Shown: positions 8,719 through 17,121, counted from the stretch's first letter. The stretch: DNA of 34,569 nt from Acutalibacteraceae bacterium (GCA_045119575.1 JBGVDX010000188.1:1-34569), one strand, 5' to 3'. Notes: generated from the sequence alone by a model not told the origin. Made by a program: numbers and translations.

Positions 8719-10857
8719 ATGCGAGAAATAAAATATACCGTTTCGCTTGATGGTGTTTCGCCGTCAAACGTGCAATTCGGCGGTATGCAAGGGGAACACA
8801 ACGCTACGCGGTTGAACGTAACGATAGACACCGAACTGTTCGCGAAGCTTGAGGGCGCCGCTTATCGGTTTGAGGCGGAGGACGGCGCAGGATGCCGACA
8901 GACGATTGCTATGGGCGAAATCGAGAGCGAAAACGTTGTCTGCTCGGTGCCTCAATCCGTAACCTGCAACGGCGGAAACGTGACAATTCGACTGATTTTT
9001 TCAAAGGTAGCCGAAACCGAGATTGAATATATATTATATTCGTTTCCGATAAGATTAAGATTTGATTTGACATCGAACGGCGAACTTACCGAGAGTAAAG
9101 ACGCTTCGGATATTTCGGCGGCGGTTGCGTTAGCGAAAGGTTATACCGAAAAAGCGGAGCAGGCGGCAAACATGGCCGAAAATGCCGCAAAAACGGCTGT
9201 TAATGTCCGTAACGGCATAGAGCAAGAAATTGCCGAGTCGTTGACAAACGCAAAGGAAAGCGGCGAGTTTGACGGCAAGGACGGCGTTTCTGTGACGCAT
9301 GAATGGAACGGAACGGAGCTGACCGTCACTTCGGCAAGCGGCACATCATCAGTTGACCTAAAGGGCGAAAAGGGCGACAAGGGCAACGACGGAGCTGACG
9401 GTAAGGATGGTGCTGACGGAATGGATGGCAAGGACGGCGCCGACGGAACACCTGCCACGCACTCGTGGAACGGTACGGTGTTAACTGTCACCTCAGCGAG
9501 CGGCACGTCATCAGCCGACCTAAAGGGCGAAAAGGGTGACAAAGGCGACCAAGGTCAGCAAGGTATCCAAGGCGAGAAGGGCGACAAAGGCGACGACGGA
9601 AGTGATGGCAAAGATGGCGTTAATGGCAAGGACGGAATTTCTGCTACGCATTCGTGGAATGGTACCGTGCTGACGGTTACTTCCGCAAGCGGAACATCGT
9701 CATCCGACCTCAAAGGCGAAAAGGGCGACACGGGTGCGACAGGAAGCACCGGACCTCGTGGCGAAAAGGGAGACAAAGGCGACAAGGGTGATAAAGGTGA
9801 CCAAGGTCAGCAAGGTATCCAAGGCGAGAAGGGCGACACGGGTGATAGTTACATTCTCACCGATGATGATAAGAGAGAAATCGCAACCAAAGCAAACGCC
9901 GTTTCTTATTCCGTCACACAAAACCTCACCGACGAACAAAAAGAAGTTGCTCGAAACAATATAGATGCGGTAGATGCCAATTTAGTGGTTTCTTCGATTT
10001 TAGATTCTTCCGCACATCCAAGGGCTTTAAAAATACCAAACGTTACTGCTCTAGAAGAATTCATTGACGAGTACACAATGCAACAGTGTGTCAGAAATGA
10101 TATACAGCAGCGTCTACATCAGAATCGGCAAGAGCTTGCCCGTAGTAACATAGGTGCTGTTTCACAAGCAGAGTTTGCCGACGGGCTTAACGAAAAAGTA
10201 GACGCTTCGCTTGTTGTTAGTAATATTATATCGGACACTGGTTCGCTTTTAAGTAACAATATTCCTAACGGTAGCGCACTAACTGCTTTTGTGCGTGAGC
10301 ATGGTGTGGCAGCTTCCCAAGTGCAAAGTTTATCTAAACCTAAAAAAGCAAGAGCGCGACAAAATATTGATGTCGACGGCGGTAAGTGGGAGTTGCTTTA
10401 TACCATAGAGGGCGACGGCGAAACCTCCCTATGGGAGTATACACAGTTCGCGGACGGCTCGCCGCTTAAATTAACTGCGGTGTCGGCGGTAATTATTCAA
10501 AACGTTGCCGAAGCCGAAAAGAGCTATGGACACCTGTACGCTTATTGCGATGCAAAATCGACACAGTTCCCGGCAGCAATATATAGCTATTTCACAAAAA
10601 ATTCAGCACCTACAAAACCGGGAACGCAAAGAGCATACGGAGTTGTTGAGCAATATAGAGGCCAATATAGAGCATATTCTGTTGGCATGGCTGAAAAAGG
10701 TAATGAAGTAATGAGATACACACCGTATATGCAAGGGAAGAGCACAACCTCCGACCATCCATATATTGACCGAATTAAAGTACAAAAACAAACCGGCGTA
10801 TTTTCCGCCGGCAACAAAATTGAAGTTTACGGGGTGAGATGTTATGACGGAGTATAA
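8719..10857 (+). CDS. Tail fibre / receptor-binding protein with collagen-like G-X-Y repeats
   Basis: GGAG RBS. The N-terminal ~115 aa resemble a BppU-type N domain (memory-level call). Three tandem THxWNGTxLTVTSASGTSSxDLKGEKGDKG modules are each followed by G-X-Y triplets. Three ARxNI(D/G)(A)V fibre-type motifs follow. The gene sits immediately upstream of the lysis cassette. Confidence 0.85.
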   Translation: MREIKYTVSLDGVSPSNVQFGGMQGEHNATRLNVTIDTELFAKLEGAAYRFEAEDGAGCRQTIAMGEIESENVVCSVPQSVTCNGGNVTIRLIFSKVAETEIEYILYSFPIRLRFDLTSNGELTESKDASDISAAVALAKGYTEKAEQAANMAENAAKTAVNVRNGIEQEIAESLTNAKESGEFDGKDGVSVTHEWNGTELTVTSASGTSSVDLKGEKGDKGNDGADGKDGADGMDGKDGADGTPATHSWNGTVLTVTSASGTSSADLKGEKGDKGDQGQQGIQGEKGDKGDDGSDGKDGVNGKDGISATHSWNGTVLTVTSASGTSSSDLKGEKGDTGATGSTGPRGEKGDKGDKGDKGDQGQQGIQGEKGDTGDSYILTDDDKREIATKANAVSYSVTQNLTDEQKEVARNNIDAVDANLVVSSILDSSAHPRALKIPNVTALEEFIDEYTMQQCVRNDIQQRLHQNRQELARSNIGAVSQAEFADGLNEKVDASLVVSNIISDTGSLLSNNIPNGSALTAFVREHGVAASQVQSLSKPKKARARQNIDVDGGKWELLYTIEGDGETSLWEYTQFADGSPLKLTAVSAVIIQNVAEAEKSYGHLYAYCDAKSTQFPAAIYSYFTKNSAPTKPGTQRAYGVVEQYRGQYRAYSVGMAEKGNEVMRYTPYMQGKSTTSDHPYIDRIKVQKQTGVFSAGNKIEVYGVRCYDGV
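9295..9846 (+). repeat. Three tandem coding modules (beta module plus collagen triplets) inside the fibre gene
   Basis: Modules begin at nt 9295, 9457 and 9646 (aa 193, 247, 310). An identical 40-nt stretch, GACCAAGGTCAGCAAGGTATCCAAGGCGAGAAGGGCGACA, occurs at 9547-9586 and 9799-9838. Confidence 0.85.
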
Positions 10858-11649: not shown

Positions 11650-12372
11650 ATGACAACAGCAAATGATATTATTAAAATCGCGAAAGCTGAAATCGGCGTT
11701 ACCGAGTCGCCGAAAAATTCCAACAAGCAAAAATACGGCAAGGAATATGGCGTAAACGGGACGGCTTGGTGCTGTCAATTCGTTTGGTGGGTCTTTAAGC
11801 ACGCGGGCGCGTCGCCTCTCTTTTACGGCGGGGGCAAAACGGCGTGGGTTCCGTCGGTAAGAAAGCATTATACCCAAAAAGGCAAGTGGATAAGACGGGG
11901 CGACGACACGCCGAAGCCCGGCGACCTTATCATTTTCGGTAATCGAGACGATTCGGGCAGCGGAAAGCATATCGGAATTATCACAAAGGTTACCTCGTCA
12001 ACGGTTTATACCGTAGAGGGGAACACGACAAAAACGGGATACAGCGCAAACGGCGGAATGGTAGCGGCGAAATCATATTCTCGCACAAATTCCAACATTG
12101 CGGGCTACTGTACCGTTGATTATGACAAGGAAAGCGAGGCAAAAACGGTTATGATTGAACTTAACCAATTAGAAAAAGGCAGCAAGGGCGATAATGTAAA
12201 GGCGCTTCAAACCCTGCTTATCGGCTACGGCTACGATTGCGGAAGGCATGGCGCTGACGGTGACTTTGGCTCGGCTACCAACGAAGCAGTCCGCAACTAT
12301 CAAAAAGCAAAAGGCTTGACAGTTGACGGCATTGTCGGCAAAAACACTTGGAACAAACTTTTAGGAGGTTAA
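11650..12372 (+). CDS. Endolysin: N-terminal CHAP/NlpC-P60-type amidase/peptidase plus C-terminal PG_binding_1 domain
   Basis: Catalytic-Cys context NGTAWCCQFVWWVF and His context GKHIGIITKV...VEGNT. The C-terminus GDNVKALQTLLIGYGYDCGRHGADGDFGSATNEAVRNYQKAKGLTVDGIVGKNTW is the classic peptidoglycan-binding repeat. GGAG RBS. Confidence 0.9.
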   Translation: MTTANDIIKIAKAEIGVTESPKNSNKQKYGKEYGVNGTAWCCQFVWWVFKHAGASPLFYGGGKTAWVPSVRKHYTQKGKWIRRGDDTPKPGDLIIFGNRDDSGSGKHIGIITKVTSSTVYTVEGNTTKTGYSANGGMVAAKSYSRTNSNIAGYCTVDYDKESEAKTVMIELNQLEKGSKGDNVKALQTLLIGYGYDCGRHGADGDFGSATNEAVRNYQKAKGLTVDGIVGKNTWNKLLGG

Positions 12373-13986: not shown

Positions 13987-14023
13987 CGCTCTATCCTGTT
14001 CCAGCAGGGTAGGGCGTTTTTTT
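13987..14023 (+). terminator. Strong plus-strand rho-independent terminator with no plus-strand gene upstream
   Basis: CGCTCTATCCTG-ttccag-CAGGGTAGGGCG forms a 12-bp stem with two G.T pairs, followed by TTTTTTT. On the minus strand the hairpin is followed by TATAACC, so it is oriented for the plus strand. Confidence 0.7.
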
Positions 14024-14046
14024 ATTGTTATTATTTATTCTTAATC

Positions 14047-14433
14047 TCAATCCTTTTCCCACATTGCTATTTCAGCTTTTGGTATTTGGCAACGTAAATC
14101 AGATTTAGGTTTTAGTTCTTTTTTTATAAACCGACAATATTTAGGTAACTTCTGCACCATAACATTTCCATACTTCCCATATTTATAAAAAGGATGATAA
14201 TAAAACCATTTACAATGTTTGCAATCGAGACACCGCAGACGAAGTTTTAAGCCGTGTTCTTTAATATATTTCTTGTTATTTTTTTGGCATTTAATACTCT
14301 CTATTATGCTTAAAAACATATCATAAAAAGCAAGAATAGTGCTACCGCCAGCTAACGTTGAAATTGCAATTCCGAAAACTTTTTCTAACAAAGAATAATT
14401 TGGCAGGAAAACTGAAAACAATACGCAGTTCAC
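14047..14433 (-). CDS. Hypothetical membrane plus Cys-rich basic protein (moron between int and the immunity genes)
   Basis: 128-codon ORF in a visibly AT-rich stretch, where long ORFs are unlikely by chance. Hydrophobic N-terminal part. The C-terminal part carries CLDCKHC plus further Cys and many Lys/Tyr. No convincing SD at the GTG start, so start and expression are uncertain. Confidence 0.45.
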   Translation of the reverse strand: MNCVLFSVFLPNYSLLEKVFGIAISTLAGGSTILAFYDMFLSIIESIKCQKNNKKYIKEHGLKLRLRCLDCKHCKWFYYHPFYKYGKYGNVMVQKLPKYCRFIKKELKPKSDLRCQIPKAEIAMWEKD

Positions 14434-14582
14434 TATAAACGAAAAACAAAAAACTTATCGTAGTGGAATTAAAAATAGTTTTGTTGATATTCTTCATTCC
14501 TCTGCTCCTTTTTATTTGGAAAAACTTACATAAAGACAAACAATATATCAACACCTTACAATTAAATGTGGAGGTGGTAATA

Positions 14583-15137
14583 TTGATATACAATAAATAT
14601 CAAGTATCAAGGAACTTATCGTGGCAGGTCATTATTAACGAAAGAATAAGCGAACTGCCGATAAATGTAGTAAAATTATGTCATTCAATGGGTATTACAG
14701 TTAAACTTTACAAACCGAAAGATGATAATTCGGGTATGACAGTAATGTTTAACGGTGCCCCGGTAATATTGGTGGCTGCTAATGAACCGCGTGAGAGACA
14801 ACGGTTTACAATAGCTCATGAGCTGGGGCATATACTACTCGGTCACGTTGGCCAATATAAACTTGTTAATAGGGAACCATCAAAAAATGATAATCCTATT
14901 GAACAAGAAGCAAATGTATTCGCTTCTCGATTGCTCGCTCCTGCCTGCGTTTTGTGGGGCTGTAATGCAAAAACAGCGGAAGATATTATGAAATTATGCG
15001 ATATTAGCCGAACAGCAGCCGAATACAGACAACAACGTATGGATAAGCTGTTGGCGAGAAATAAGTTTTTGTTACATCCATTAGAAAGACAAGTCTATTC
15101 ACAATTCACAAATTACATATCAAATAATAAATTATAA
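14583..15137 (+). CDS. ImmA/IrrE-family zinc metalloprotease (anti-repressor protease)
   Basis: HELGHILLGH motif with downstream EQEANVFASRLLAP (HExxH...E). GGAGGTGG lies 5 nt before an in-frame TTG at 14583. The track ORF from 14463 adds an RBS-less hydrophobic extension. Confidence 0.85.
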   Translation: MIYNKYQVSRNLSWQVIINERISELPINVVKLCHSMGITVKLYKPKDDNSGMTVMFNGAPVILVAANEPRERQRFTIAHELGHILLGHVGQYKLVNREPSKNDNPIEQEANVFASRLLAPACVLWGCNAKTAEDIMKLCDISRTAAEYRQQRMDKLLARNKFLLHPLERQVYSQFTNYISNNKL

Positions 15138-15497
15138 ATCATCGGGAACGTCCGGTAATTGATTTATAAGAATTTCAAGCGCTTTGACCTGTTCATCGGT
15201 CAGGCGCTTTTCTATTTGTCTGCCGTCTCTGCCTGCGATTCTGAGGATGTTTTCTTTTGGATGACTGTCATTGTTAAACTGAATGTCATTTATAAGAGTT
15301 TTATTATCGTTCTCGCCGATTAAATATGAAACAGAAACGCCGAAATAGTTGGCTATTTTCTGCATCTTATCGGCTTTCGGTCGGTAGTTGCCGTGTTTCC
15401 ACTCGCTTAACGTTGATTGAGAAATTCCGGTTTCCTTAGCAACTTGTGCGGCGGTTACATTGTGTTTTTTTAACAATTCGACAAAAATTTCATACAT
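15132..15497 (-). CDS. XRE-family HTH repressor (CI/ImmR-like), no S24 peptidase domain
   Basis: MYEIFVELLKKHNVTAAQVAKETGISQSTLSEWKHG... is a canonical XRE HTH. AGGGGTG lies 8 nt before ATG 15497. The longer track ORF (to 15581) would run through a consensus promoter. The C-terminal 55 aa lack the Ser-Lys peptidase motifs. Confidence 0.85.
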   Translation of the reverse strand: MYEIFVELLKKHNVTAAQVAKETGISQSTLSEWKHGNYRPKADKMQKIANYFGVSVSYLIGENDNKTLINDIQFNNDSHPKENILRIAGRDGRQIEKRLTDEQVKALEILINQLPDVPDDL

Positions 15498-15521
15498 ATT
15501 TTGTACACCCCTAACAAAATT

Positions 15522-15601
15522 AAGAAATCTGAATAAAGCGTGTTGACAAATTAAGAAAACCGAATTATAATAAAAATACAACTTCGGAAAACTGAATAAT
15601 T
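15522..15601 (+). promoter_or_regulatory. Three direct copies of a 17-mer operator-like repeat (a fourth copy is inverted at 15857-15873)
   Basis: AAGAAATCTGAATAAAG (15522), AAGAAAACCGAATTATA (15553), CGGAAAACTGAATAATT (15585), spaced 31 and 32 nt apart. The inverted copy CGGAAAACCGATATATA is the reverse complement of 15857-15873. Confidence 0.4.
15541..15571 (+). promoter_or_regulatory. Consensus sigma-A promoter pointing rightward
   Basis: TTGACA (15543-15548), exactly 17 nt, TATAAT (15566-15571). Confidence 0.6.
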
Positions 15602-15679
15602 CGCCGCGCTTAATTGACCGTTTTTTTGCAGAGTTCTTAACTTCCTATTCTTTTCTCTGCAACAGCTCAACCCCGCCAA

Positions 15680-15748
15680 TCATCGCCGGTATGGTGGACC
15701 GGAGCAGTGCGGGAAGAGCATCATGAGAAAGCTAATAAGCTTTTCCAT
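15680..15748 (-). CDS. Candidate 22-aa hydrophobic peptide (MEKLISFLMMLFPHCSGPPYRR) in the repressor leader
   Basis: GGGAGGTG lies 6 nt before the ATG on the minus strand. The ORF was hand-translated and is too short for the ORF track. Coding status is unproven. Confidence 0.3.
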   Translation of the reverse strand: MEKLISFLMMLFPHCSGPPYRR

Positions 15749-15818
15749 GAAAATCACCTCCCGTTTTTTTATTTGCAAAAACTACCGAAAAGGAAAAACT
15801 TAACGGCAATTATTGCAT

Positions 15819-15862
15819 AAGCAGTTAAAAAGGTGGCAGCCCTTAACTGCTTTTAGTATATA
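15819..15862 (+). terminator. Plus-strand hairpin plus U-rich tail about 50 nt upstream of the cro-like gene
   Basis: AAGCAGTTAA-14 nt-TTAACTGCTT forms a perfect 10-bp stem, followed by TTAGTATATAT. Confidence 0.45.
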
Positions 15863-15885
15863 TCGGTTTTCCGAAGTTGTCAACA
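15855..15885 (-). promoter_or_regulatory. Near-consensus sigma-A promoter pointing leftward (toward the repressor)
   Basis: Minus strand: TTGACA (15883-15878), 17 nt, TATACT (15860-15855). 25 of 31 positions are identical to the plus-strand promoter at 15541-15571 by hand alignment. Confidence 0.5.
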
Positions 15886-15911
15886 TTAAAAAAAGGAAGT
15901 GATAAAAATCA

Positions 15912-16103
15912 ATGTATGAAGTATTTGAGAAAAAAGCCAAAGAAAAGGGTGTAAACGCCTTTCAAGTGGCGAAAGCAACAGGAATTGCCAATTCGACTTT
16001 GTGTGAATGGAAGGCAGGGAGATACACACCCAAAATCGACAAGCTAATCAAACTTGCCGAATATTTCGGTTGTGATGTAATGGACTTTTACAAGAAAGGG
16101 TGA
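15912..16103 (+). CDS. Cro-like XRE-family HTH protein
   Basis: 63 aa. MYEVFEKKAKEKGVNAFQVAKATGIANSTLCEWKAGRYTPK is clearly paralogous to the repressor N-terminus. AGGAAGTGA RBS. Confidence 0.85.
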   Translation: MYEVFEKKAKEKGVNAFQVAKATGIANSTLCEWKAGRYTPKIDKLIKLAEYFGCDVMDFYKKG

Positions 16104-16112
16104 GTAAGAGAA

Positions 16113-16316
16113 ATGCAACTGATTAACGCGAATGAACCGCACAGGCTTGTGCTTCGTCGGAGAAAAATCAGACGTCAAGATGGGAGACCGGTTATCAGGG
16201 TATCGCCTGCGGTGTATCAGATACTTGCAGATTTGAGCGATGATACCGGGCATACGATTTCGGATATAGCAAGTGCGATGATTGAATTTGCATTAGAACG
16301 AACTGAAATTGAATAG
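16113..16316 (+). CDS. Small basic protein, possibly ribbon-helix-helix
   Basis: 67 aa with a basic N-terminus. RPVIRVSPAVYQILADLSDDTGHTISDIASAMIEFAL looks like strand-helix-helix. The fold call is tentative. Confidence 0.5.
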   Translation: MQLINANEPHRLVLRRRKIRRQDGRPVIRVSPAVYQILADLSDDTGHTISDIASAMIEFALERTEIE

Positions 16317-16327
16317 GAGTGATTATA

Positions 16328-16567
16328 ATGCCGGCACTTAGAAAGAATAAGGACCAAATAAGAGAAACTGAAATTAAAAAGTTATTTACAGCGGCTTTGC
16401 TTGATAAGGGCTGGACTCAAAAGCATTTGGCAAAGCTTCTGGGTATGGATTCAGGCAACCTCAGCCGAACAATCAATCATCCGTTGAAGCGTGAATTTCA
16501 TACTTTATTACGTATAGCGGACAAGCTCGGAGTTAATCTCGGCGAAGCATTATTAAAAAGTAATTGA
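16328..16567 (+). CDS. HTH DNA-binding protein
   Basis: AGGAG lies 8 nt before ATG 16328. WTQKHLAKLLGMDSGNLSRTINHP is an HTH. Confidence 0.65.
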   Translation: MPALRKNKDQIRETEIKKLFTAALLDKGWTQKHLAKLLGMDSGNLSRTINHPLKREFHTLLRIADKLGVNLGEALLKSN

Positions 16568-16583
16568 AAATCAAGGAGAGTGG

Positions 16584-16868
16584 GTGATTAAAATGCTGAC
16601 TATCGAACAGTACATAGCAATATGGTGTGGAGTGGTGCTTTTGATTAGTTTAATTTCAATGCGTGCAGAACGAAAACGGCATGTTAACGAAATTAAACGA
16701 TTAAAAGAACGACTCGATTTAGCAGAGGCCAATCGGGACCTATACGAGTCCGATGCGCGACACTATTATGAAGCATGGAAAAAAGAAAAAGAGCTTGCCG
16801 CGGCAAAACGCGGACAAGCCCAAAAGAAAAAAGATTCTGTGATTATAATACCAGAAAAAATTATTTGA
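16584..16868 (+). CDS. Membrane-anchored coiled-coil protein
   Basis: AAGGAGAG RBS. One TM helix (IAIWCGVVLLISLISM) followed by a charged coiled coil. The start is either GTG 16584 or ATG 16593. Confidence 0.55.
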   Translation: MIKMLTIEQYIAIWCGVVLLISLISMRAERKRHVNEIKRLKERLDLAEANRDLYESDARHYYEAWKKEKELAAAKRGQAQKKKDSVIIIPEKII

Positions 16869-16890
16869 GTCAAGAAAAGGGGAAATATTT

Positions 16891-17121
16891 ATGTATAAAA
16901 AAAGCGATTTTGCAAGAGATGCGTTAATTATTGTATCAAATGGCGATAGTTTGCGTGAGGATTATGAATATTATAACAAGCTGATTGATTATCTTGCTGA
17001 TAAGTTAGTAAGCGAATTAAACTCCGAAAAATGGGAACAGCGTTCAGAAGAAGAAAAGGCAAAACTCATTGAAGAATTAAAAAAAGACGCGGAGGAATCA
17101 ATAAATGAGCACACTATATAA
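16891..17121 (+). CDS. Small acidic hypothetical protein
   Basis: 76 aa, GGGG RBS, E/K-rich. Overlaps the next gene by 17 nt. Confidence 0.55.
   Translation: MYKKSDFARDALIIVSNGDSLREDYEYYNKLIDYLADKLVSELNSEKWEQRSEEEKAKLIEELKKDAEESINEHTI

Follow-up and report, generated by a model that had tools for sequence, protein, structure and literature searches.

The locus described here is the immunity region of a 34,569-nucleotide stretch of DNA from an Acutalibacteraceae bacterium (GCA_045119575.1, JBGVDX010000188.1:1-34569), which we call the window and which appears, from its gene content and Pfam matches, to be the whole, permuted genome of a temperate phage (~34.6 kb). A repressor gene (15132-15497, minus strand) and a cro-like gene (15912-16103, plus strand) are divergent and are separated by a gap of 414 bp. 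The repressor gene encodes 121 amino acids (aa), with an N-terminal helix-turn-helix (HTH) domain of the XRE/HTH_3 type (Pfam HTH_3, E = 5.6e-14) followed by a short C-terminal domain. The cro-like gene, which is preceded by the Shine-Dalgarno (SD) sequence AGGAAGTGA, encodes a 63-aa HTH_3 protein and is the first gene of the rightward early operon. Genes for an ImmA/IrrE-type M78 metalloprotease and a tyrosine integrase lie to the left of the repressor gene. To the right of cro are early genes (a further HTH gene, Gp157, and a DUF927 primase) and then terminase and portal genes, and the lytic genes all follow cro on the plus strand. The first-pass annotation of this sequence had proposed a lysogeny switch, and this gene content, with the XRE repressor, the ImmA-type protease, and the integrase on one side and cro and the early genes on the other, supports that assignment; the sequence features that it listed were also all found in place.

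The two regulators carry paralogous HTH domains, as had been suggested (57% identity over 56 residues, E = 6e-22). Both proteins begin with MYE(I/V)F, and both match Pfam HTH_3. We take the ATG at 15497 as the start of the repressor; it lies behind an SD sequence (AGGGGTG), and all homologues begin with MYEIF. An N-terminally extended repressor of 149 aa, starting from a TTG at 15581, was rejected on the same grounds.

Facing promoters and shared operators

The two near-consensus sigma-70 promoters previously placed in the gap held up in a scan of the whole window. P_R, the predicted early (lytic) promoter (15543-15571, plus strand; TTGACA-17-TATAAT, 12/12 matches to consensus), is separated from the repressor ATG by 46 bp; cro begins 340 nt downstream of it, and transcription is predicted to start at ~15578. 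P_L, the predicted promoter toward the repressor gene (15883-15855, minus strand; TTGACA-17-TATACT, 11/12), sits 29 bp away from the cro ATG and has the repressor ATG 350 nt downstream of it; its predicted start is at ~15848. Markov resamples predict 1.05 sigma-70 matches of at least 11/12 for the window, which contains six. Just one of the six, P_R, is a 12/12 match, and just one, P_L, is on the minus strand; the 414-bp gap contains both. The promoters face each other, and their predicted starts are ~270 nt apart, which agrees with the crossing of about that length originally proposed. With P_R beside the repressor gene firing to the right and P_L beside cro firing to the left, the two transcription units would thus collide, as do those of pR and pL in coliphage 186.

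P_R and P_L also resemble each other. Read directly, the 31-mers that contain them are identical at 25 of 31 positions; scored as a 35-nt inverted repeat, they are 83% complementary. This bears out the idea that they are paralogous copies with a common operator in their spacers (O2 and O4, described below). The P_R sequence is invariant in all of the close relatives, and P_L is likewise invariant; these relatives could be reached only by protein look-ups (Logan, ENA, and NCBI assemblies) and come from gut metagenome assemblies and one Clostridia metagenome-assembled genome. SRR25030072 and ERR13612512 are among the metagenome runs from which the contigs derive. The promoter scan found no further plus-strand promoter of at least 9/12 between 15572 and 16036. 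The only candidate for a back-to-back arrangement was a weak one (9/12, TTTTCC-16-TATAAT, 15591-15564, minus strand), and no pE/CII-type establishment promoter was identified at the locus. An extended -10-like element, TGcAATAAT (15809-15817, minus strand), lies 40 nt downstream of P_L in the invariant right arm of the gap and could be a second leftward start.

The same architecture recurs well beyond the close relatives. For a wider survey, we scanned genomes with the repressor alignment and collected 80 loci (Lachnospiraceae, Oscillospiraceae, Hungatella, Lacrimispora, Paenibacillus, and others). At each locus, the divergent HTH pair was located by tblastn, the best sigma-70 match was taken on each strand of the gap, and the distance between the predicted starts was calculated. 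With the window's own group excluded, 47 of 51 non-redundant gaps were face-to-face, versus 18% of shuffled gaps (maximum, 31%). The median overlap was 64 nt, the median gap was 222 bp, and the equivalent of P_R stood beside the repressor gene in 47/51 loci. As controls, the same script recovered the experimentally known lambda PR/PRM pair as back-to-back (overlap, -83) and scored TP901-1 as back-to-back as well (overlap, -102). The cultured Ruminococcus gnavus phage phiRgPS_6 was also face-to-face in a separate promoter scan. In the GenBank record of coliphage 186, pR is beside cI and pL is beside apl, and pL is annotated as "inhibited by convergent pR promoter." Convergent promoters were also predicted, and 186-like interference suggested, for two ImmR/ImmA-type prophages of Clostridium clostridioforme in 2024 (PMC11318856); a literature search found no experimental work on the present repressor/cro family. 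Collectively, these predictions make the face-to-face layout the rule in this family and not a peculiarity of the window. Of the unusual layout first claimed, the overlap, far above that of 186, stands, but the orientation itself is typical of the family.

The repeats shared by the two promoters had been described as 17-mers. Three direct copies and one inverted copy are indeed present, with the 18-nt direct repeats starting at 15517, 15548, and 15580 (spacing, 31 and 32 nt); their sequence, however, is better read as four putative operators, each a 14-bp dyad of the form TTCGG-AAAA-CCGAA. O1 (15520-15533; TTAAGAAATCTGAA) is the weakest copy and lies between the repressor ribosome-binding site and the P_R -35 element, O2 (15551-15564; TTAAGAAAACCGAA) fills the P_R spacer, O3 (15583-15596; TTCGGAAAACTGAA) covers P_R +6 to +19, and O4 (15862-15875; TTCGGAAAACCGAT on the minus strand) fills the P_L spacer. 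Searched with at most two mismatches, the dyad TTCGGAAAACCGAA has just three occurrences in the whole window (15551, 15583, and 15862). From centre to centre, the distances from O1 to O2 and from O2 to O3 are 31 and 32 bp, or three helical turns. The perfect inverted 15-mer noted before was confirmed and extends to an 18-nt pair (15578-15595 and 15863-15880) that is 94% complementary. Across the family, operator-like sequence is common to both spacers (mean best 12-mer identity, 8.4 versus 7.3 in shuffles), and many loci have an O3-equivalent site at P_R +1. We regard the layout of the core switch, with its facing promoters and the operators as described here, as very probable.

One close relative with a long gap (L112) departs from the standard operator set. 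At the position equivalent to 15860-15878 of the window, the dyad in its P_L spacer reads TTACGGAACTCTGTAA, in which the CGG-N4-CYG half-sites are retained and the centre and flanks are changed. The Cro protein of L112 is identical to that of L113, in which O4 is standard.

The central cassette and its terminator candidates

Between O3 and the predicted start of P_L, the core is interrupted by a variable cassette (15598-15800). A sister phage, L106, has no such cassette, and in comparison with it the window has ~200 extra bases at this site. The L106 gap is 199 bp long and has the 12/12 and 11/12 promoters and the four-operator plan of the window, including the equivalents of O3 at P_R +1 and of O4 in the P_L spacer. 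The Cro protein of L106 differs from that of the window at 7 of 63 residues and from those of other group members at one or two, and the same run of early genes follows. Where a cassette is present, alignments show three forms of it between switch arms that are nearly invariant: a short form, as in the window (gap of 414 to 417 bp); a long form with an additional 148 bp (559 to 563 bp); and a replaced form, the L107 type (408 bp). A shorter, partly related cassette is found in L105. The two transcripts are predicted to overlap by ~270 nt in the window, by 415 to 419 nt in phages with the long form, and by ~55 nt in L106. Since the cassette is lacking in L106 and replaced in phages that are nearly identical to that of the window, the long overlap is an add-on and not part of the switch core; as judged from these alignments, the ~270-nt overlap is due to a nonconserved, inserted, and exchangeable cassette.

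The near-identical phages are those of the L107 type (L107, L108, and L010), whose repressor is 96% identical to that of the window. In their cassette, at the equivalent of ~15650-15770, the minus strand has a good terminator, CAGCGTTTTACGCTG followed by T5. This terminator lies ~125 nt past the P_L start, between P_L and the repressor gene, in a prophage whose repressor, ImmA, and integrase genes are all intact. The L107-type cassette also contains an SD-like sequence, GGGGGTGG, without an open reading frame (ORF). A terminator scan found no leftward terminator in the window's own cassette.

Two stops had been proposed on the rightward path between P_R and cro, and a candidate does lie there. 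A T7 tract (15764-15770), listed at first as a possible bare stop, is present, but it follows a 56-nt hairpin (15709-15764) whose GC-rich base (GCGGGA/UCCCGU) runs straight into U7, which makes it the better terminator candidate of the two (T1; 15709-15770, plus strand). A 77-nt segment around T1 folds at -23.0 kcal/mol, and the minimum-free-energy structure of the P_R leader includes T1. All 10 distinct short and long variants keep both the hairpin and the T tract, two of them in weaker form. From these folds, T1 is a credible rightward terminator upstream of cro.

The other proposed stop, a hairpin with a U-rich tail at 15819-15862, has the perfect 10-bp stem claimed for it (T2; 15819-15852, with arms at 15819-15828 and 15843-15852 around a 14-nt loop) but is the weaker candidate. 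T2 abuts the P_L -10 element, and its U-rich tail is the complement of that element. The stem has a C.A mismatch in 6 of 10 distinct relatives, with one compensatory change (C-G to T-A) in L021, and the segment folds at -14.6 kcal/mol in the window and at -7.9 to -12.3 kcal/mol in relatives. Weaker hairpins are also found at this position in L105 and L106. With the P_L start at ~15848, T2 may equally be the 5' stem-loop of the leftward transcript, and it could be a weak rightward terminator, such a stem-loop, or both. A separate promoter for cro downstream of T2 was not found; the best candidate there (TTGTCA-18-GATAAA) would omit the cro ribosome-binding site.

The cassette region folds better than shuffled sequence on both strands (z = -4.0 for the plus strand, as P_R leader, and -3.1 for the minus strand). 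Plus-strand coding was rejected, as the reading frame and start codon vary between variants. On the minus strand, a 22-codon ORF (15680-15748; MEKLISFLMMLFPHCSGPPYRR) has an SD sequence (GGGAGGTG, 15762-15755) 6 nt from its ATG and is complementary to T1. The ORF is intact in 10/10 short and long variants, in which its changes are 4 nonsynonymous to 1 synonymous. The L107-type and L105 cassettes lack it, as does L106, and gene callers did not report it. We conclude that it is probably not a functional gene.

Searches beyond the close relatives returned little. A second copy of the cassette was found neither in the window nor in the fetched loci, and the cassette had no match in the phage collection or in viral or metagenome contigs. 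Comparison of the long form with phage records by blastn gave no match, and the same comparison with the window's switch region matched only a short stretch coding for the repressor HTH. Neither switch arm (P_L or P_R) nor the cassette core was matched in exact-pattern scans of the genome, viral, and metagenome contig collections. With Rfam 15, there was no hit at E = 1 or better in window positions 14000 to 17000 or in L001, L005, L008, L010, and L013.

Two further observations concern this site. Just past T1, a 28-nt stretch (15764-15791) is 71% complementary to the -35/operator region of P_L (15867-15894), and this decayed plus-strand copy of a promoter-operator inside the cassette hints that the cassette arose with a duplication. 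In two distant family members (L042, 2010-2501; L087, 1720-2223), the gaps are 490 to 502 bp long and have a cassette on the repressor strand, adjoining cro, that consists of a duplicated P_L-like promoter, a gene for a zinc-ribbon protein of ~58 aa (four CxxC-type cysteines), and a terminator.

Proposed working of the switch

The explanation that best fits the whole of this material is that the locus serves a temperate, siphovirus-like phage of gut Clostridia as its immunity switch and that a core standard for the family has here received an inserted terminator cassette; we would put the probability of this reading at roughly 0.6. In such a switch, repressor dimers would fill O1 to O3 and shut P_R. 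With P_R shut, the lytic genes would be silent, and oncoming polymerases would be removed from P_L. Cro would occupy O4 and turn P_L down, and the repressor may do the same at high concentration. Upon induction, the ImmA-type protease would inactivate the repressor. T1 would attenuate leaky transcription from P_R into cro and would halt P_R polymerases short of P_L, which would bias the switch toward stable lysogeny; lytic growth would then proceed by read-through at high firing rates. The sequence features, their conservation, the geometry across the family, and the insertion were seen in the sequences themselves; from these we infer the activities of the promoters, the pairing of proteins with operators, and the effect of T1, and the particular role assigned to the T1 cassette, attenuation of leaky P_R transcription in favour of stable lysogeny, is advanced only tentatively. 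Transcriptional interference, control by antisense RNA, and looping between operators, as first suggested for this locus, are plausible by analogy with 186 and the Enterococcus faecalis plasmid pCF10. The spacing between O3 and O4 is 62, 279, 282, or ~424 to 428 bp in the different variants; the helical phasing of O4 relative to O1 to O3 thus differs among them, and this lends no support to a phased loop.

Several points weigh against this reading. T1 is unusually long for a terminator and has internal loops, and a simple terminator scan missed it. In L013 and L015, its U tract is offset by AA, and the stems are weaker (segments at -17.5 and -10.8 kcal/mol). The leftward terminator of the L107 type, in a prophage with an intact repressor, is hard to square with P_L as the sole promoter of the repressor gene. 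O4 and O3 are equally close to the dyad, with one mismatch each; the repressor might therefore shut its own promoter, which would leave maintenance expression unexplained. Finally, the variability of the cassette fits tolerated filler DNA equally well.

This last point leads to the strongest of the rival explanations, in which the cassette is tolerated filler, such as a decayed moron, T1, T2, and the small ORF are nonregulatory remnants, and the long overlap is incidental. Its absence from L106 and its three unrelated or mosaic forms between invariant arms speak for this explanation. In L042 and L087, the same slot is occupied by a true moron on the repressor strand (duplicated P_L, zinc-ribbon gene, and terminator), the L107-type cassette resembles an SD sequence and a terminator from between which an ORF has been deleted, and the 4-to-1 excess of nonsynonymous changes in the 22-codon ORF points the same way. 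However, when a terminator stands in the single path that leads from a promoter to the lytic genes, it must alter expression, whatever its origin. T1 is also kept, with its T tract, in 10/10 short and long variants, and both strands of the region fold better than shuffles. We consider inert filler unlikely, although it is the likeliest of the alternatives.

The L107-type terminator and the state of O4 bear on a second alternative, in which P_L would be a lambda PRE-like promoter, strong and repressible, serving establishment and making RNA antisense to the cro leader, and the repressor of the lysogen would be expressed from a weak proximal promoter arranged back-to-back with P_R. Leftward transcripts of the L107 type would stop ~125 nt past the P_L start while the repressor gene stays intact, and an operator with a single mismatch in the P_L spacer should let the repressor shut P_L. 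A proximal candidate exists in the 9/12 match at 15591-15564, whose palindromic -10 element, ATTATAAT, is common to it and P_R, and lambda PRM itself scores merely 8/12 in the same scan. Against this, the -35 element of the candidate is poor and wholly covered by O3, which predicts repression and not activation, and an AT-rich palindromic -10 element yields opposite-strand matches by chance. Furthermore, the best promoter directed at the repressor gene is the distal, cro-side one in 47/51 relatives, and the leftward terminator is not part of the window's own cassette. A PRE-like P_L thus strikes us as quite unlikely.

A third alternative takes the long overlap itself as the regulatory element. 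As in pCF10, RNA from P_L would pair with the nascent P_R leader and decide whether T1 (or T2) forms, which would add attenuation of cro and the lytic operon to repression at the promoter. In favour of this, the overlap is predicted at 270 nt and the leader of the "on" operon has a terminator ahead of the first gene, and there is a precedent: in pCF10, the prgQ and prgX transcripts overlap convergently over 223 nt, and Anti-Q RNA enhances termination of the leader at IRS1 (PMC3181467). In the L107 type, P_L would in addition release a discrete RNA of ~125 to 135 nt ending at its own terminator. The folding results speak against this mechanism, in that an alternative antiterminator fold was not found and T1 is present in the unperturbed minimum-free-energy structure. 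The window's cassette also gives no defined 3' end to a small antisense RNA, compact relatives do without the long overlap and the terminator, and an RRNPP-type regulator is absent. We therefore rate antisense attenuation as improbable. That the cassette is instead a small-peptide module (a type I toxin-antitoxin system or a signalling peptide, with the 22-codon ORF translated from P_L mRNA and the P_R leader ending at T1 as the antisense regulator) is very improbable. The ORF has a strong SD sequence 6 nt from its ATG, which a hairpin hides when the minus-strand RNA is folded, and 10 variants have the ORF intact; it also faces a predicted antisense transcript with its own terminator. Against this, its hydrophobic stretch is just 9 residues long, its changes are mainly nonsynonymous (4 to 1), it is missing from the other cassette types (L107 type and L105) and from L106, its SD sequence is merely the complement of the T1 stem, and no peptide receptor is encoded nearby.

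A more novel reading can also be stated, which we offer as speculation and do not think probable: the slot between the facing promoters may be a plug-in site for terminator cassettes of a given polarity that tune the switch. If so, a rightward terminator such as T1 would make interference one-way and bias the switch toward lysogeny, whereas an L107-type leftward terminator would have the opposite effect, releasing a discrete antisense RNA and shielding P_R. If the two RNAs also paired over 270 nt or more, one insertion would be enough to convert an interference switch of the 186 kind into an attenuation switch of the pCF10 kind. Whatever the role of the cassettes, this group of phages amounts to a natural series, with 55, 270, and 415 nt between predicted starts and with promoters, operators, and regulators that are otherwise almost identical. 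Together with cassettes that have terminators of either polarity, the series is suited to testing how the length of the overlap and termination within it affect interference and the stability of lysogeny. All of this rests on prediction; should the promoters be inactive or the cassette inert, what remains would be an ordinary immunity region.

The M78 metalloprotease gene (14583-15137, plus strand, with an alternative start at 14463; 184 aa; Pfam Peptidase_M78, E = 7.4e-16) converges on the repressor gene from the opposite strand, and their 3' ends overlap by 6 bp; it was called in the same arrangement in L008 and L107 to L110. The protease is likely the inducer, acting through cleavage of the repressor. 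The 3' end of the repressor gene contains two terminator-like hairpins for the protease transcript (15141-15156 and 15183-15204). Pfam found neither an S24 domain nor a TPR or RRNPP domain in the 121-aa repressor. Sister prophages (L013 to L024, L106, and L111 to L113) have 204-aa repressors instead, in which an HTH domain 92 to 95% identical to that of the window is joined to a C-terminal Peptidase_S24 domain. The sisters thus have a 204-aa S24 repressor where the window has a 121-aa repressor and a separate M78 gene: one induction-sensing module has been exchanged for another around an unaltered set of DNA-binding domain, operators, and promoters. The C-terminal ~40 aa of the window's repressor (15132-15260; ENILRIAGRDGRQIEKRLTDEQVKALE..LPDVPDDL) are almost unchanged in five repressors (P0002, P0003, P0021, P0022, and P0028) whose HTH domains are quite unlike its own. 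This segment behaves as an independent module and is perhaps a dimerisation or protease-recognition part.

Directly past cro (16113-16567) are a 67-aa gene without a Pfam match and a small HTH_26 gene (start at 16319 or 16328, end at 16567), both of which are kept in sister phages that have the 63-aa cro. Either product could be an extra regulator (an antiterminator or antirepressor), which would be relevant to read-through of T1. No LexA (Cheo) box was seen when the gap was read by eye, and the possibility that attP lies within the gap was rejected, as the integrase gene is 1.6 kb away and has its own intergenic region. The first 12 kb of the window contain tail genes, a collagen-like fibre gene, and a CHAP endolysin gene. 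Among these are a 2555-aa ORF (994-8661), presumably for a tail or tape-measure-like protein; a gene for a 712-aa protein with collagen triple-helix repeats (8719-10857); and an endolysin gene with CHAP and PG_binding domains (11650-12372). We read these tail, collagen-like, and endolysin genes as the late region of the same phage, which is why the window is taken to be a permuted whole genome.

Comparison with known systems

Convergent-promoter switches are textbook knowledge only for P2/186-like coliphages and a few plasmid systems. The present locus has the 186/P2-like arrangement, in which the lytic promoter lies beside the repressor gene, the lysogenic promoter lies beside the first lytic gene, and the two fire into each other. 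As in 186, the repressor operators are clustered on the lytic promoter, here by prediction. The annotated -10 elements of 186 place its starts roughly 60 nt apart, close to the median of 64 nt in compact members of the family. The window differs in its overlap of ~270 nt, which includes a terminator, and in P_L, which is near-consensus and has its own operator in the spacer. The proteins, too, are unrelated. Where 186 has CI and Apl, the present family uses an XRE/HTH_3 repressor, accompanied by an ImmA-type or S24 induction module, and a Cro-type HTH protein. All homologues found were XRE-type, with an S24 or a short C-terminal domain, and neither homology to 186 CI nor an Apl/Cox-type regulator was found among them. 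The 186 geometry with an overlap of ~60 nt appears to be the default in a large XRE repressor/Cro family of gut Clostridia and Paenibacillus prophages, which would amount to convergent evolution of a circuit layout.

Lambda and TP901-1 share with this locus a divergent repressor and cro and multiple related operators that are graded in their match to consensus. The self-cleaving S24 repressors of the sister phages are lambda-like as well, with the same DNA-binding domain as in the window. In lambda and TP901-1, however, the promoters are back-to-back, whereas here each must transcribe across the other. The ImmR/ImmA systems of ICEBs1 and phi105 likewise have an XRE repressor gene adjoining that of a COG2856/M78 metalloprotease, with an integrase gene alongside. 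In ICEBs1, immR and immA are cotranscribed and PimmR and Pxis divergent; here, in contrast, the protease gene runs toward the repressor gene and overlaps it by 6 bp, and the two promoters fire at each other. Type I toxin-antitoxin systems are recognised by a conserved small hydrophobic toxin ORF under purifying selection, overlapped by an antisense RNA, and the 22-codon ORF did not have this character.

A parallel for the long overlap is pCF10, which also belongs to Firmicutes, with convergent promoters and an overlap above 200 nt (223 nt there and a predicted ~270 nt here), a factor-independent terminator in the leader of the "on" operon, and repressor operators at the "on" promoter. It differs in being a plasmid conjugation switch under a peptide-sensing RRNPP regulator, PrgX, without homology to the proteins described here. 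Antisense RNAs, RNase III processing, and interference were demonstrated experimentally in pCF10, whereas counterparts of them in the window would be hypothetical.

Also close are the prophages phi5 and phi12 of C. clostridioforme LM41 (PMC11318856). These share the host group (Lachnospiraceae prophages) and the gene set, in which an ImmA-type protease accompanies an HTH repressor whose gene diverges from a second HTH gene, and convergent promoters in the intergenic region and 186-like interference were proposed for them. That proposal was a remark on promoter predictions in two prophages, without operator analysis, a family survey, or experiment, and neither an expanded gap nor an internal terminator was described. 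The convergent layout as such is thus already known as a prediction in related prophages, and what is particular to the present locus is an exchangeable cassette with a predicted terminator between the facing promoters.

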